Below are positions 1-4,834 of a stretch of DNA of 19,655 bases, piece by piece. Source of the stretch: Gemmatimonadales bacterium. Its GTDB lineage: Bacteria; Gemmatimonadota; Gemmatimonadetes; Gemmatimonadales; GWC2-71-9. How positions within the stretch are numbered: the first letter of the stretch is position 1; each line of letters begins with the position of its first letter. A program made the translations under genes and the position numbers. The DNA is taken from the NCBI GenBank assembly GCA_041613315.1, contig JBFJHJ010000045.1, positions 1 through 19,655 of the forward strand. Direction: 5' to 3'. The notes under the pieces were generated by a model. The model searched no databases. It was not told the origin of the DNA and saw nothing but the letters and a program-made list of their open reading frames with translations.

Positions 1-2
1 CC

Positions 3-23
3 CGCTCACCGCTCACACCTCAC
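3..23. repeat. Heptamer tandem repeat (nnCTCAC x3), possibly truncated by window edge
   Basis: cgctcac / cgctcac / acctcac at 3-9, 10-16, 17-23. Confidence 0.5.
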
Positions 24-30
24 GTCAAAC

Positions 31-60
31 GAAAAAACCCCGGTCGCGAGGCGCCGGGGC
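31..60 (-). terminator. Intrinsic terminator directly 3' of the SAM-II aptamer
   Basis: Minus-strand RNA CCCCGG-CGC-cuc-GCG-a-CCGGGG-UUUUUU: a GC stem of 6+3 bp with one bulged A, followed by U6. Confidence 0.8.
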
Positions 61-65
61 GGGCG

Positions 66-116
66 TTTTAGCGACTTGTTTAACGTGGCTGCAATAGGCG
101 CAAATCACCACGGATC
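66..116 (-). ncRNA. SAM-II (SAM-alpha class) riboswitch aptamer
   Basis: Minus strand reads GAUCCGUGGUGAUUUG-cgccuau-UGCAGCCACGUUAAACAAGUCGCUAAAA. P1 is CGUGG/CCACG, the pseudoknot is GAUUUG/CAAGUC, and the 3' tail is GCUAAA. This matches the SAM-II consensus known from alphaproteobacterial met genes as I recall it. Confidence 0.9.
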
Positions 117-132
117 ACGATTGTCGGTGAGG

Positions 133-161
133 AATCTACGCTGCTCCGCAATTCCTGGGAA
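133..161 (-). promoter_or_regulatory. Putative sigma70 promoter for the riboswitch leader
   Basis: Minus strand TTCCCA (161-156) - 17 nt - TAGATT (138-133). Predicted TSS near 126, about 10-15 nt upstream of P1. Confidence 0.45.
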
Positions 162-164
162 GGG

Positions 165-201
165 GGTCGGGAAAGGACGAGGGGTGGTCGTCCCCCCGAC
201 C
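165..201. other. GC-rich stem-loop immediately after the yggU stop (possible terminator or stabiliser of the kgd-yggT-yggU mRNA)
   Basis: ggtcggg..ggacga / tcgtcc..cccgacc inverted repeat. Only a weak pyrimidine tail on the minus strand. Confidence 0.45.
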
Positions 202-205
202 GCCC

Positions 206-487
206 TTACACTCCTAACCGCCGCACGGCCTCGTCGGTATCGAGCCCCTCGATGACCACCCGTTTCCGCCGGCCGCCGGCACCGGCGGCGAGCGACACGC
301 TGGACGGCGGCATGCCCAGCCGGTCGGCGAGGAAGCGGACCAGCTCGGCGTTGGCGGCGCCCCCCGACGGCGGCGCCGCGACGCGGACCTTGATCGCGTC
401 GCCGTGCCACCCCGCGACTTCCGTGCGCCGCGCCTTCGGCTGGACGTGCAGGGTGAGGCGGGCGCTGCGAGGCGGTGCGGGCGTCAC
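206..487 (-). CDS. yggU: DUF167 / YggU (UPF0235) family protein
   Basis: Motifs LHVQPKARR, IKVRVAAPP.GGAAN.ELVRFLA, GAGGRRK. It lies downstream of yggT, a conserved gene order. Confidence 0.9.
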   Translation of the reverse strand: MTPAPPRSARLTLHVQPKARRTEVAGWHGDAIKVRVAAPPSGGAANAELVRFLADRLGMPPSSVSLAAGAGGRRKRVVIEGLDTDEAVRRLGV

Positions 488-581: not shown

Positions 582-1151
582 TCAGAGGACCGACACGATC
601 ACGCCGAGGGCGATTTGAATGACGAACCACGCGACGAACGGCGTGATGTCGATGGGGCCGAGGGGCGGGATCACACGCTTGAGCGGCTCGACGATCCAGT
701 CGGTGAGCCGGTACGCGTACTTCATGACCGCCTGGTACCGCCCGACGCCGAGCCACGATCCGATCACCCGCGCGATGAGCGCGAACGAGACGATTTGGCC
801 GGCGAGCACGATCGCGAAGCGGATCGCGGCCAGCGGCCCGGTGAGCGCCGCCCGAGCCAGCCCGAGCACCGTGGTGATCAGGAGTTGCGCCACCGACAGC
901 ACGAGGATGCCGCCGATGAGGCTCACGCCGAAGAGCCACCAGCCGGCGTTCTGCGGGTTGCCGCCGCGGCGCAACTGCCACGTCTCGATCGGCGCGAGAA
1001 CAGGGTCCGTCAATCGGCGGATGGTCTGCCCGGCCGAGCCGAACGGACTGATGCGGCGCGACCGTACCGCCCACGAGCCGAGGGCGATGGCCGCGCTGCC
1101 GACGAAGACACCGAACACGGCGTACCGGAGCACATCGAGGACAAGCGTCAC
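582..1151 (-). CDS. yggT: YggT family membrane protein (two YGGT repeats)
   Basis: Hydrophobic helices with RLTDP.LAPI and RLTDWIVEPLKRVIPPLGPIDITP motifs. The GTG start overlaps the kgd TGA (GTGA), with GGAGG upstream. Confidence 0.9.
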   Translation of the reverse strand: MTLVLDVLRYAVFGVFVGSAAIALGSWAVRSRRISPFGSAGQTIRRLTDPVLAPIETWQLRRGGNPQNAGWWLFGVSLIGGILVLSVAQLLITTVLGLARAALTGPLAAIRFAIVLAGQIVSFALIARVIGSWLGVGRYQAVMKYAYRLTDWIVEPLKRVIPPLGPIDITPFVAWFVIQIALGVIVSVL

Positions 1152-4100
1152 GCGAGTACCTCCGTTACGAGTCGGTCCTGCTCCTGCTTATGTGCCGCGG
1201 GATACCCCTCGGCCGGACTGGCCCGCTCCGGCCGCGAGACGTAGCGGAGCTGGAGCCCGCGGGGGAGCACGTCGCCGATGCGCGGGATCGCCCATTTCCT
1301 GGCGCCGAAATTCTTGGGCTCTTCCTGGAGCCAGACCACTTCTCGGAGGTTTGGGTAGGACGTGATGAGCTCGCGGACCGCCTCGGCGGGCCATGGATAG
1401 AGAAGCTCCACCCGCCCCACCGCCACGTGCGCCGCCTCCGGCCGGCGGCCGCTCATCACCGTGTCGTAGTAGATCTTGCCCGAGCACAGCACCAACCGGG
1501 TCACGTCGTCCCGGCTCCCCGGGAGCGCCGGATCGCCCATCACGTGGTGGAACCGACCCTCCGTCAACTCGCCGAGTGTGGAGGCTGCCTGCGGCAGGCG
1601 GAGCAGGCTCTTGGGGGTCATCAGCACCAGCGGCCGCAGCTCCGTATGCGTCGCCTGGCGCCGCAGGAGGTGGAAGTACTGCGCCGGGGTCGAGCAGTTG
1701 GCGACGCGGATGTTGTTCTCCGCACCCAGCGCCAGGAACCGCTCCAGCCGTGCGCTCGAGTGCTCGGGCCCTTGGCCCTCATAGCCGTGCGGGAGGAGCA
1801 GCGTGAGGCGGGACGTCTGCCCCCACTTGGCGAGGCCCGCCACGATGAACTGGTCAATGATGATCTCGCCGCCGTTCACGAAGTCACCGAACTGGGCCTC
1901 CCACAGGACGAGCGTCTCCGGTGCCGCCACGCTGTAGCCGTACTCGAACCCCATCGCGCCATACTCCGACAGCGGGCTGTTGTGCAGCTCGAGCGGTGCC
2001 TTGGCGTCCGGCAGGTGGCGAATCGGCGTGTAGACCCGCCCGTCCTCCGCGTCGTGGAGCGTGAGGTGCCGCTGGCTGAAGGTGCCCCGTTCGGTGTCCT
2101 GGCCGGTGAGGCGAATCGGGATCCCTTCCACCAGGAGCGACGCGTAGGCCAGCGACTCGGCGTGCGACCATTCGATCCTTTGTCCGTCGAGCGCCCCGCG
2201 GCGTTGCTCGAACAGCTTCTGGAGCTTTCGGTTCACGCGGAACCCATCGGGGACGGTGAGCAGTTGCTCGTTCAGGTCCCGCAGCCGCTCGGCGCCCACG
2301 GCCGTCGCCGGCTCGTGTTCCGCGGCGAACACGCCGGAGCGGCGGGGCGGCTCAACCGGGGCATCGCTGCCCTCGTCGCCCCGCTCGCGCTGTCGCAGCT
2401 TGTCCTGCGTCTCCCGCAGTTGCCGCTGCACGCGCGCCGCCATCTCCTCCGCCTCCTCCTCCGTCACCACGCCGTCGTCGACCGCCGCCGTCGCATACAG
2501 CTCCCGGACCGTCGGATGGTCGTCCACCCGGCGGTACATGAGCGGCTGGGTGTAGCGGGGCTCGTCGCACTCGTTGTGCCCGTGCCGCCGATAGCCGACC
2601 AGGTTGATCACGACGTCACCGTGGAACTTCTGCCGGTACATCATCGCGAGCCGCACGGCCGTGAGACACGCGTGCGGGTCGTCGGCGTTCACGTGCACGA
2701 TCGGCACGTCGAAGCCCTTGGCCAGATCGCTGGCAAAGTCGGTGGACCGGGCGTCGCCGGGATTCGTGGTGAAGCCGATCTGGTTGTTGGCGATGATGTG
2801 GAGCGTACCGCCGGTGGTGTAGCCCTCGAGCCGCGCGAGGTTGAGCGTCTCGGCCACGACTCCCTGCGCGGCGAAGGCCGCGTCCCCGTGGATCAAGACC
2901 GGCAGGACACTGGCCGGCGCGTGCCGTAACTCGGGCGCGGATCGGTCGGACTGCCGCGCCCGGGCCGAGCCCACCACGACGGGGTTCACCGCCTCGAGGT
3001 GGCTGGGGTTCGGCATGAGGCTCACATCGAGCTCGGCACCGCTCGAGGTGCGGTAGATGCCGTGCGCACCGTGATGGTACTTCACGTCGCCGGTCCGGCC
3101 GGTCGTGATGAGCGTGTCCACGTCCAGTCCGCCCTCGAACTCGCGCAGCACGTTCTGGTACGGTACGCCGAGGATGTGCGCGAGGACGTTGAGCCGCCCC
3201 CGGTGCGCCATCCCGATCACGATCTCGTCCGCGCCCTGCTCCGCGGCGAGGTCCAGCGCCTTGTGGAGCATCGGAACGAGCGTGTCGAGCCCCTCGATGC
3301 TGAAGCGCTTCTGGCCCAGGTACGCGCGCTGGAGGAACTGCTCCAGTCCCCCCACCCGCGTGAGACGCTCCAGGAGCTGGCGCCGTTCGTCCTCGGAGAG
3401 CGGCTTGCGGTGCTCCCCCGACTCGATGACGCGGCGCAGCCATTCCCGCTCTTCGTGATTGGCGATGTGCTCGATCTCGTAGGCGACGGTTCCGCAATAG
3501 GTCTCGCTGAGCTTCGGCAGGACATCCGCCACCGTGTCGCCGGGGGCGTAGACCCGCAGCACGCTCGCCGGGATACGCGCGAGTTGCGGCGGCGCGAGGT
3601 CCCAGGCGGCCGGGTCGAGCGAGGGATCGCCCCGGGGCGGCACGCCGAGCGGATCGAGGTGCGCCGCCAGATAGCCGTGGGAGCGGTGGTGGTCCACCAT
3701 CGCCATCGCCGCGGCGACCTGACGAAGCGTCGCCTCGTCGACGGCGCCACCCCGCGCGGCCGGAGCGGGGGAGATGGCCGCACCCGCCGCCATTGCCGCT
3801 TCCGCCGCCCCTGGTTCCACTTCCATCGCCTCGGCGACCGCCCCGTAGAATCCCTCGGCGCCTTGCAGCAGCTGGTCGACCACCCGCAGGAACATCCCCG
3901 ACTCGGCGCCCTGGATGATCCGGTGGTCGTACGTGCTCGTGAGCGTCATGAGCCGCGTGCCGCCGACTTCGCGGATCGCCCCGGTCGCGATGATGGATCC
4001 CTGCCCCTTCATGAGCCGCGGCACCGACGCCACCGTCCCGATCGTGCCAGGATTGGTGAGCGTGATCGTGCCGCCCATGTAGGCGTCCGGCATCAGCTTC

Positions 4101-4762
4101 CCGTCGCGAGCCCCGGCCACCAGCCGCTCGTATTCCTCGTAGAACGCGCGAAACGCCATCGCGTCCGCGCGCTTGATCACCGGTACCAGCAGCTTGCGCT
4201 TTCCGTCCCGACCCTCGACGTCCACGGCGAGCCCCAGGTGCACGCCGCCCGGATCCTGCCGGTAGTAGTCGTCGCCCTCGCGGGCGACGGCGTGCACCAT
4301 GGCGGGGATCTGCTTGGCCGCCTGCACGATCGCCCACCCGATCAGGTGGGTGAAGGAGAGCTTGAGATCGCGCGGCGTGAGCGCGCGGTTGAGCGCCGCG
4401 CGGACGGCCCACAGGTGGGCGACGTCCACGTCGCGGAACGACGTCGCGGTCGGGACCTCGAGCGACACCTCCATGTTCTGGAGCAAGCGGAGCGCGGGGC
4501 CGGTGATGCGCTGCGGCGAGCCGGGCGCAGACGGGGCAGTGGGGGCAGGAGATCCGCGCTCGGCGGTGGCTGCCGCTCCCCCTGCCGCTCCTGCCCCTGC
4601 TGTGTCTCCCGCCCCGACCGCACTCACCGGCGCGTCCCCCTGCAGTCCGTTCTCGAACAGCTCGCGCCACTCCGGCGGCACCGACTGCGGGTCCCGCAGG
4701 TAGTCCTCGTACAGCGCCTGGGCGAAGCCCGAGTTGACGGTCTCGAAGATGTTCTCGAACAC
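1148..4762 (-). CDS. kgd: Multifunctional 2-oxoglutarate dehydrogenase, E2-like succinyltransferase domain fused to E1 (Kgd/OdhA type)
   Basis: N-terminal LYEDYLRDPQSV.PEW segment, E2 catalytic-like TYDHRIIQGAESG, and E1 motifs KRFSIEG, GMAHRGRLN, HGDAAFAAQG (ThDP), WEAQFGDF and LPHGYEGQGPEHSS. Start placed at GTG 4762 rather than TTG 4807 because a promoter-like -10 overlaps 4806-4811. Confidence 0.95.
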   Translation of the reverse strand: MFENIFETVNSGFAQALYEDYLRDPQSVPPEWRELFENGLQGDAPVSAVGAGDTAGAGAAGGAAATAERGSPAPTAPSAPGSPQRITGPALRLLQNMEVSLEVPTATSFRDVDVAHLWAVRAALNRALTPRDLKLSFTHLIGWAIVQAAKQIPAMVHAVAREGDDYYRQDPGGVHLGLAVDVEGRDGKRKLLVPVIKRADAMAFRAFYEEYERLVAGARDGKLMPDAYMGGTITLTNPGTIGTVASVPRLMKGQGSIIATGAIREVGGTRLMTLTSTYDHRIIQGAESGMFLRVVDQLLQGAEGFYGAVAEAMEVEPGAAEAAMAAGAAISPAPAARGGAVDEATLRQVAAAMAMVDHHRSHGYLAAHLDPLGVPPRGDPSLDPAAWDLAPPQLARIPASVLRVYAPGDTVADVLPKLSETYCGTVAYEIEHIANHEEREWLRRVIESGEHRKPLSEDERRQLLERLTRVGGLEQFLQRAYLGQKRFSIEGLDTLVPMLHKALDLAAEQGADEIVIGMAHRGRLNVLAHILGVPYQNVLREFEGGLDVDTLITTGRTGDVKYHHGAHGIYRTSSGAELDVSLMPNPSHLEAVNPVVVGSARARQSDRSAPELRHAPASVLPVLIHGDAAFAAQGVVAETLNLARLEGYTTGGTLHIIANNQIGFTTNPGDARSTDFASDLAKGFDVPIVHVNADDPHACLTAVRLAMMYRQKFHGDVVINLVGYRRHGHNECDEPRYTQPLMYRRVDDHPTVRELYATAAVDDGVVTEEEAEEMAARVQRQLRETQDKLRQRERGDEGSDAPVEPPRRSGVFAAEHEPATAVGAERLRDLNEQLLTVPDGFRVNRKLQKLFEQRRGALDGQRIEWSHAESLAYASLLVEGIPIRLTGQDTERGTFSQRHLTLHDAEDGRVYTPIRHLPDAKAPLELHNSPLSEYGAMGFEYGYSVAAPETLVLWEAQFGDFVNGGEIIIDQFIVAGLAKWGQTSRLTLLLPHGYEGQGPEHSSARLERFLALGAENNIRVANCSTPAQYFHLLRRQATHTELRPLVLMTPKSLLRLPQAASTLGELTEGRFHHVMGDPALPGSRDDVTRLVLCSGKIYYDTVMSGRRPEAAHVAVGRVELLYPWPAEAVRELITSYPNLREVVWLQEEPKNFGARKWAIPRIGDVLPRGLQLRYVSRPERASPAEGYPAAHKQEQDRLVTEVLA

Positions 4763-4805
4763 GATGCGATGGCCTTTGCTCTGATCTAACGCGTTTGCGT
4801 CACGC

Positions 4806-4834
4806 AAGATACGGTGACACTGGTCGCAAGTCGA
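4806..4834 (-). promoter_or_regulatory. Putative sigma70 promoter of kgd
   Basis: Minus strand TCGACT (4834-4829) - 17 nt - TATCTT (4811-4806). Confidence 0.4.

Follow-up and report, generated by a model that had tools for sequence, protein, structure and literature searches.

In the excerpts of the cited papers on which this account draws, SAM-II riboswitches carry a promoter just before P1 and, in many representatives, a terminator that suggests an OFF switch (PMC1273637). They are described as most often terminator-associated, by a mechanism not established at the time of that report (PMC2258182), and most are held to be transcriptional, the SD-masking metX element being a rare translational case (PMC6061858). 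Terminator-type SAM-II elements have also been placed in tandems, as a prediction (PMC9481103), and elsewhere SAM-II is treated as a switch acting by ribosome-site occlusion (PMC10907184). The proteobacterial targets comprise metY, metA, metX, hom and metC (PMC4239095). In Sinorhizobium meliloti, SAM-induced termination has been predicted for metZ and a terminated SAM-II RNA of approximately 100 nt has been detected by Northern blotting; the terminator behind the metA element is active in both media and has no predicted antiterminator (PMC9373788). The first-pass annotation of the present locus had regarded a terminator platform and the release of a small RNA as unusual for SAM-II, but both are already published (PMC1273637, PMC2258182, PMC6061858, PMC9373788).

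Here we analyse a SAM-II leader at the end of a contig of a Gemmatimonadales bacterium (assembly GCA_041613315.1, contig JBFJHJ010000045.1); the whole stretch of 19,655 nt, referred to as the window, supplies all positions below unless another contig, C38, is named. The locus resembles the SAM-II metA motif in having a putative promoter a few nucleotides before P1, a terminator between the pseudoknot and the open reading frame and methionine genes downstream (PMC1273637, from the portions consulted), but differs in its host, Gemmatimonadota. The target also differs, being mainly metH in this group rather than the metY, metA or metX listed for SAM-II (PMC4239095, likewise in part). With S. meliloti metZ and its RZ small RNA it shares a terminator platform predicted on SAM binding and a terminated RNA of about 100 nt, detected there and predicted here. 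In our own test, however, the metZ leader (L378) offers a tail-to-terminator helix of only 3 bp. In its predicted SAM-free fold the tail seems to be paired with the terminator's 3' arm and U tract (PMC9373788, as far as its accessible text goes), whereas here the terminator top and 5' arm would be engaged.

The aptamer, its putative promoter and the operon downstream

The features of the locus are given one per line. The names P2a and P2b rest in part on what we take to be the arrangement of the 2QWY structure. They also follow, by analogy, the descriptions of SAM-II and SAM-V in the consulted portions of PMC6061858.

133..161, minus strand: putative sigma70-type promoter, TTCCCA (161-156), 17 nt, TAGATT (138-133); sequence reading
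63..112, minus strand: SAM-II aptamer; RF00521 match and sequence reading
112-108/88-84, minus strand: P1 stem; sequence reading
107-102, minus strand: third strand UGAUUU; sequence reading
101-99/65-63, minus strand: P2a, GCG with CGC (3 bp); sequence reading
94-91/72-68, minus strand: P2b, UUGC with GC(U)AA; sequence reading
72-66, minus strand: aptamer tail GCUAAAA; sequence reading
43..75, minus strand: candidate antiterminator of the SAM-free state; energy and conservation
75-71/47-43, minus strand: outer helix of the candidate antiterminator, GUCGC/GCGAC; sequence and folding
65-62/55-52, minus strand: inner helix of the candidate antiterminator, CGCC/GGCG; sequence and folding
27..60, minus strand: intrinsic terminator, stem 60-54/43-37, inner pairs 53-51/47-45, loop 50-48, bulge A44; sequence and folding
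37-32 plus 29-27, minus strand: terminator U tract, six U and further U; sequence
1..26, minus strand: spacer to the operon, continuing on C38
C38 144-148: SD sequence AGGAG; sequence
C38 156: presumed GTG start, in frame
to C38 3878: metH; TIGR02082, 1734 bits versus a cut-off of 1011
to C38 5713: fused homocysteine methyltransferase/MTHFR gene; NF006396, 689 versus 453

In the Rfam covariance-model search that had been proposed for this locus, RF00521 (SAM_alpha) matched positions 48-121 of the minus strand across the full model (positions 1-79 of 79; E = 5.8e-9), its 50.7 bits exceeding the gathering score of 36, which bears out the initial reading of a near-textbook SAM-II aptamer. This was the sole Rfam match at gathering level in the whole window; the SAM-II long loops family and SAM-V (presumably RF01826) gave none there. 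Both a P1 stem enclosing UGAUUU and UUGC and a GCUAA tail able to form the pseudoknot are present, and the P1 pairs are unchanged in 16/16 aligned leaders, with no variation. On every feature that can be tested from sequence the element belongs to SAM-II, differing from the alphaproteobacterial consensus in its short, 3 bp P2a and its shorter L1.

The promoter candidate at 161-133 matches 8 of 12 consensus positions, which lies under the threshold of the consensus scan, and the scan returned no promoter. The relatives used for comparison here and below are 235 distinct leaders obtained from 254 loci examined, five of which failed the extraction expression; a TANNNT at the matching distance occurs in 207 of the 235, versus 10 of 232 control windows. 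We infer that transcription starts near 125-124, which, with termination in the U tract, predicts an RNA of approximately 95 nt. A very stable hairpin (160-207, minus strand; −31.7 kcal/mol, 0/200 shuffles as good) is situated between the stop of a DUF167/YggU gene (206-487) and the promoter candidate, extending into the first bases of the −35-like hexamer; it is without a U tract, is single-copy in the genome and may insulate the leader against upstream read-through.

The window begins at a contig end, and the start of C38 is an exact reverse-complement copy of window positions 1-141. From this exact 141 nt overlap we infer that the window is joined to C38. The alternative of two SAM-II copies in the genome is disfavoured, the overlap being exact and six of the nine contig-end overlaps in the genome being 141 nt long. 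A short contig in three DNA runs matches window 1-95 with no differences and is in full about 200 nt longer than the portion compared; none of the contigs compared spans the whole stretch. Contigs of many other organisms in these runs pile up on the aptamer, which accounts for the contig break. Across the join, SAM-II sits 5' of methionine genes in the sense orientation, so the expectation of a met/SAM gene to the left of the window is borne out by metH on C38. The genome also contains metK, and SAM-I (RF00162) was not found in it at 83% completeness. Further into the window (1148-4807, minus strand) lies a gene for 2-oxoglutarate dehydrogenase E1 in its fused, multifunctional form (NF008907, 1413 bits versus 878) with an N-terminal acyltransferase-like part.

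The position of the SD sequence separates this leader from the translational relatives. It is found approximately 40 nt past the U tract and more than 60 nt after the tail, outside both aptamer and terminator, and thus neither in nor beside the pseudoknot tail, where the metX type and SAM-V would have it. The aptamer core and tail are like those of metX SAM-II (PDB entry 2QWY), but the metX tail occludes the ribosome-binding site, whereas here the SD sequence follows the terminator. SAM-V, described with a related pseudoknot and SAM pocket (PMC6061858, in the portions consulted), differs in being translational.

The terminator and a candidate antiterminator

The terminator hairpin (60-37) has a predicted energy of −18.2 kcal/mol and is the only terminator-like site on both strands of positions 1-1000 (one found, 0.4 expected). 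It begins 5 nt after the tail, where the first-pass annotation gave about 6 nt, and, as in that annotation, with no start codon in between. A strict terminator is present at the same position in 167/232 related leaders, compared with 4/232 downstream windows and 21/234 shuffles. A looser detector (dG ≤ −8, 4 U of 8) called 222/232 leaders, yet also 130/234 shuffles and 61/232 control windows; since it is unspecific, the strict version is relied on for terminator counts. Six loci (L009, L040, L076, L114, L152 and L161) carry SAM-II without a terminator call, and in these the tail directly precedes the apparent start of a fused methyltransferase/MTHFR-type gene, which makes them candidate translational switches in Gemmatimonadota.

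It had been suggested that the pseudoknot strand GUCGC (75-71) pairs with GCGAC (47-43) of the terminator as a 5 bp antiterminator. The positions stand, and the pairing is conserved in relatives as part of a candidate two-part antiterminator, but the pseudoknot helix takes only GC (72-71) of GUCGC, while GUC is the end of the L3 linker. By itself the 5 bp helix is at chance level (P ~0.48, 5000 shuffles) and yields only −5.4 kcal/mol relative to P1 only, and it was rejected as a stand-alone argument; a duplex test on this leader gave p 0.075. The outer helix being too weak alone, the CGCC/GGCG helix that it encloses, and that occupies the terminator 5' arm, is needed as well. Outer and inner helices together reach −13.2 kcal/mol, with 6/200 dinucleotide shuffles as good. 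The switch energy gained by freeing the tail is −9.4 kcal/mol versus −2.6 kcal/mol in structure-preserving terminator shuffles, 3/1000 of which are as good (p ~0.004).

Folding was followed by leader length with P1 held, SAM binding being mimicked by blocking the tail. Under these conditions the antiterminator has a probability of 0.98-0.99 at leader lengths 82-85, and blocking the tail brings the terminator to 0.99 already at length 85. At equilibrium without SAM the probability of the antiterminator falls to 0.29 at length 86 and to 0 from 87, where the terminator is favoured with or without the tail blocked (−23.1 versus −18.1 kcal/mol). Since the terminator is approximately 5 kcal/mol stabler than the antiterminator, switching would have to be kinetic. 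Energy and position thus support a candidate, mutually exclusive antiterminator that uses aptamer bases, in a copy that is eroded compared with close relatives, which have 7-14 contiguous pairs.

Conservation was assessed in leaders that are kin and of which 119 loci, about half, were retrieved with a pattern in which the tail is fixed; some loose hairpin boundaries in the duplex, contiguous-helix and switch-energy tests are imperfect. Within these bounds, a helix of at least 7 bp between the tail and the loop or top of the terminator is found in 128/222 leaders versus 14 expected, and in 28/47 dereplicated methyltransferase-linked leaders versus 3.4 expected. The motif UUU-N-GC occurs in the platform of 120/232 leaders, versus 1 and 4 in control windows, and in 110 of these 120 its N, which faces the tail U, is one of the two letters able to pair with U, A or G. 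Switch energies reach p ≤ 0.05 in 25/38 methyltransferase-linked representatives and 9/32 others, counts that omit representatives whose hairpin call started too early. GCGAC accompanies the linker end GUC in 25 of 32 leaders, versus 10/200 leaders with other ends, and no comparable GUC/GAC-like extension was seen at nine other linker ends (for example 0/13 CUC and 0/29 UCC). In the alignment, which holds 16 of the 32 GUC leaders, the outer five pairs are kept in 16/16, with U-A changed to U-G in two, and the terminator top holds the conserved GCG(A/G)C; no two-sided change occurs at any antiterminator pair among these 16. Tree-based independent pairs were not significant, just 2 and 3 being usable (starred branches), and an own-versus-foreign swap test was weak (0.42 versus 0.5 expected). 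Support for the tail-to-terminator helix accordingly comes from conservation and energy rather than from compensatory change.

A second set of 114 leaders was drawn nearly entirely from metagenomes by an alphaproteobacterial-type loop pattern and includes three named plasmid loci. Here a helix of at least 7 bp occurs in 38 of the 104 leaders with a terminator versus 11.1 expected, and among individual leaders the tail-to-terminator helix measures 9 bp in Rhizobium metA and 3 bp in S. meliloti metZ. The enrichment in alphaproteobacterial-type copies led us to reject an antiterminator confined to Gemmatimonadota.

Variants of the pairing were also observed. At L035, L066, L074, L086 and L166 the complement of the tail lies in the terminator 5' arm, not in the loop, and four of the five folds show 10-12 contiguous pairs. 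At L021, L026, L178, L181, L182, L206, L216, L226, L241, L252 and L255 there is complementarity between the L1 loop (GCCGC) and the 5' arm of the terminator (GCGGC). This pairing reaches p ≤ 0.05 in 13/49 dereplicated representatives not classed as metH and in 0/39 metH-linked ones; a slipped pseudoknot of this kind is a possible second antiterminator type.

Proposed mechanism and its alternatives

We consider it likely that the element is a cis-acting SAM-II riboswitch working as a transcriptional OFF switch for the operon of metH and the fused methyltransferase/MTHFR gene, a design already suggested by the first-pass annotation and supported by the terminator and the metH operon downstream. 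With SAM absent, the tail and the end of L3 would capture the terminator's top and 5' arm during transcription, and the combined GUCGC/GCGAC and CGCC/GGCG pairing would delay folding of the terminator as the polymerase passes through the U tract, allowing metH to be read. With SAM present, the tail would be locked in the pseudoknot triple helix, leaving the terminator to fold freely and release the RNA of approximately 95 nt. Given the greater stability of the terminator, such a kinetic switch would probably be leaky toward termination.

The same stability, since the fully transcribed terminator is stabler than any alternative, could also be read as that of a largely constitutive attenuator, with SAM bound but mainly stabilizing the released RNA or acting elsewhere. 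The terminator behind S. meliloti metA provides a precedent (PMC9373788, in the text consulted), and the erosion of the antiterminator here relative to the 7-14 contiguous pairs of relatives points the same way. We nevertheless regard this reading as unlikely: complementarity to the tail is far above chance inside otherwise divergent terminators, and its conservation counts against a constitutive terminator, which would not need it; moreover, the composite helix of this leader is bettered or equalled by just 3/1000 shuffles. A SAM-dependent terminator switch might instead employ another ON helix, either L1 GCGCC (101-97) with the GGCGC of the 5' arm, as a slipped pseudoknot, or a pairing between the tail and the terminator's 3' arm and U tract. 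The L1 pairing is enriched in the 13/49 dereplicated non-metH leaders and a 5 bp version is possible in this leader, and the text of Fig. S1 of PMC9373788, as far as it was available, suggests a tail/U-tract hairpin for S. meliloti metZ. In this leader, however, the L1 pairing does not exceed shuffles (p 0.25), none of the 39 metH-linked representatives reaches p ≤ 0.05, and the conserved GCG(A/G)C is located at the terminator top, which together make a different ON helix improbable.

Control at translation, or an element that is mainly the gene of a trans-acting small RNA, seems very improbable to us. Promoter, aptamer and terminator do form a self-contained unit, trans roles of such RNAs have been raised as speculation (PMC9373788, in its consulted portions) and a few relatives without a terminator have the tail directly before a start codon; but the SD sequence and start lie past the terminator here, and most relatives have a methionine enzyme downstream, as for a cis element. 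Of these readings, the transcriptional OFF switch is the most likely.

SAM-II in Gemmatimonadota

The Gemmatimonadota host, at first surmised, is confirmed by the labels of the subtype-pattern matches, by the YggT clusters and by the match of the aptamer in a plasmid collection. The pattern matches at least 119 genome stretches; among the matches listed, 115 are from Gemmatimonadota, two have no phylum and one each belongs to Thermotogota and Pseudomonadota. The three best Atlas clusters of the neighbouring YggT protein are most often from Gemmatimonadota, and the best of the eight plasmid-collection records matched by the aptamer is Gemmatirosa kalamazoonensis, in which a terminator-type SAM-II precedes metX. 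RF00521 scores above its cut-off in 33/41 relatives and 96/141 genomes of the phylum (both counts including this genome) and in 0/14 control genomes. By family, it is near-universal in the order of this genome (60/65, 31/31 and 2/2); several distant families have it seldom or gave no match (1/16 and 0/9).

A homocysteine-methyltransferase-type start follows 155 of the 235 distinct leaders. Of 76 further downstream frames scanned, 50 have a Pfam hit, mostly to methionine- or aspartate-pathway enzymes (14 methyltransferase, 10 PALP, 7 MTHFR, 4 Cys/Met PLP, 3 homoserine dehydrogenase, 3 PanB, 2 GHMP kinase and 7 others), and 26 have none; the one PALP frame checked is closest to threonine synthase. 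Threonine-synthase-like frames follow SAM-II at L004, L026, L043, L059, L211, L220, L222, L223, L224 and L230, homoserine dehydrogenase frames at L109, L210 and L252, and homoserine kinase frames at L172 and L226; an amino-acid kinase (L206), a PAPS reductase (L246) and a hemL-like frame (L031) are also seen. The spectrum of targets suggests SAM control over the whole aspartate-family branch in Gemmatimonadota. The ketopantoate hydroxymethyltransferase gene panB follows SAM-II at L153 (650-1495, minus strand; TIGR00222 over its cut-off), L178 and L181, and is absent from the SAM-II targets named in the portions of the literature consulted. L153 (G095:C13, 14227-14302 and 14510-14583) also carries two SAM-II aptamers back to back on opposite strands, approximately 200 nt apart, which serve divergent genes.

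A search covering mainly literature outside subscription journals found no publication joining SAM-II and Gemmatimonad, and judged by titles and the starts of abstracts none of the papers on Gemmatimonad and riboswitches was on SAM-II. The consulted main text of PMC5473149 and PMC12452182 does not contain 'Gemmat', their figures or supplements possibly listing the phylum, and the portions seen of PMC11508383 and PMC10469786 hold nothing pertinent. Nor do titles and abstract starts on SAM-II antiterminators or single-round transcription, within the same coverage, describe the tail-to-terminator helix.

Both the riboswitch class and the platform type are known, and the locus is an ordinary instance of each; only the details of its wiring and its host group have been little described. 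Across much of Gemmatimonadota the standard methionine regulator appears to be SAM-II (96/141 sampled genomes). In the literature consulted, structural and dynamic work has centred on the rare translational metX element, and the mechanism of the terminator-type majority is still given as predicted; the conserved tail-to-terminator helix names the exact bases to mutate. From helices of at least 7 bp in 128/222 Gemmatimonadota leaders and 38/104 alphaproteobacterial-type leaders (11 expected), we tentatively put forward a rule, which may or may not hold, for terminator-type SAM-II: the terminator would hold a reversed copy of the tail in its loop, top or 5' arm, giving a kinetically trapped antiterminator, with an L1 slipped pseudoknot in paralogous copies. 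Such a general platform rule was not found stated in the portions of the literature consulted; if true, it would provide a wiring plan, open to test, for the mode that most SAM-II elements use and that the structural work on metX leaves uncovered.
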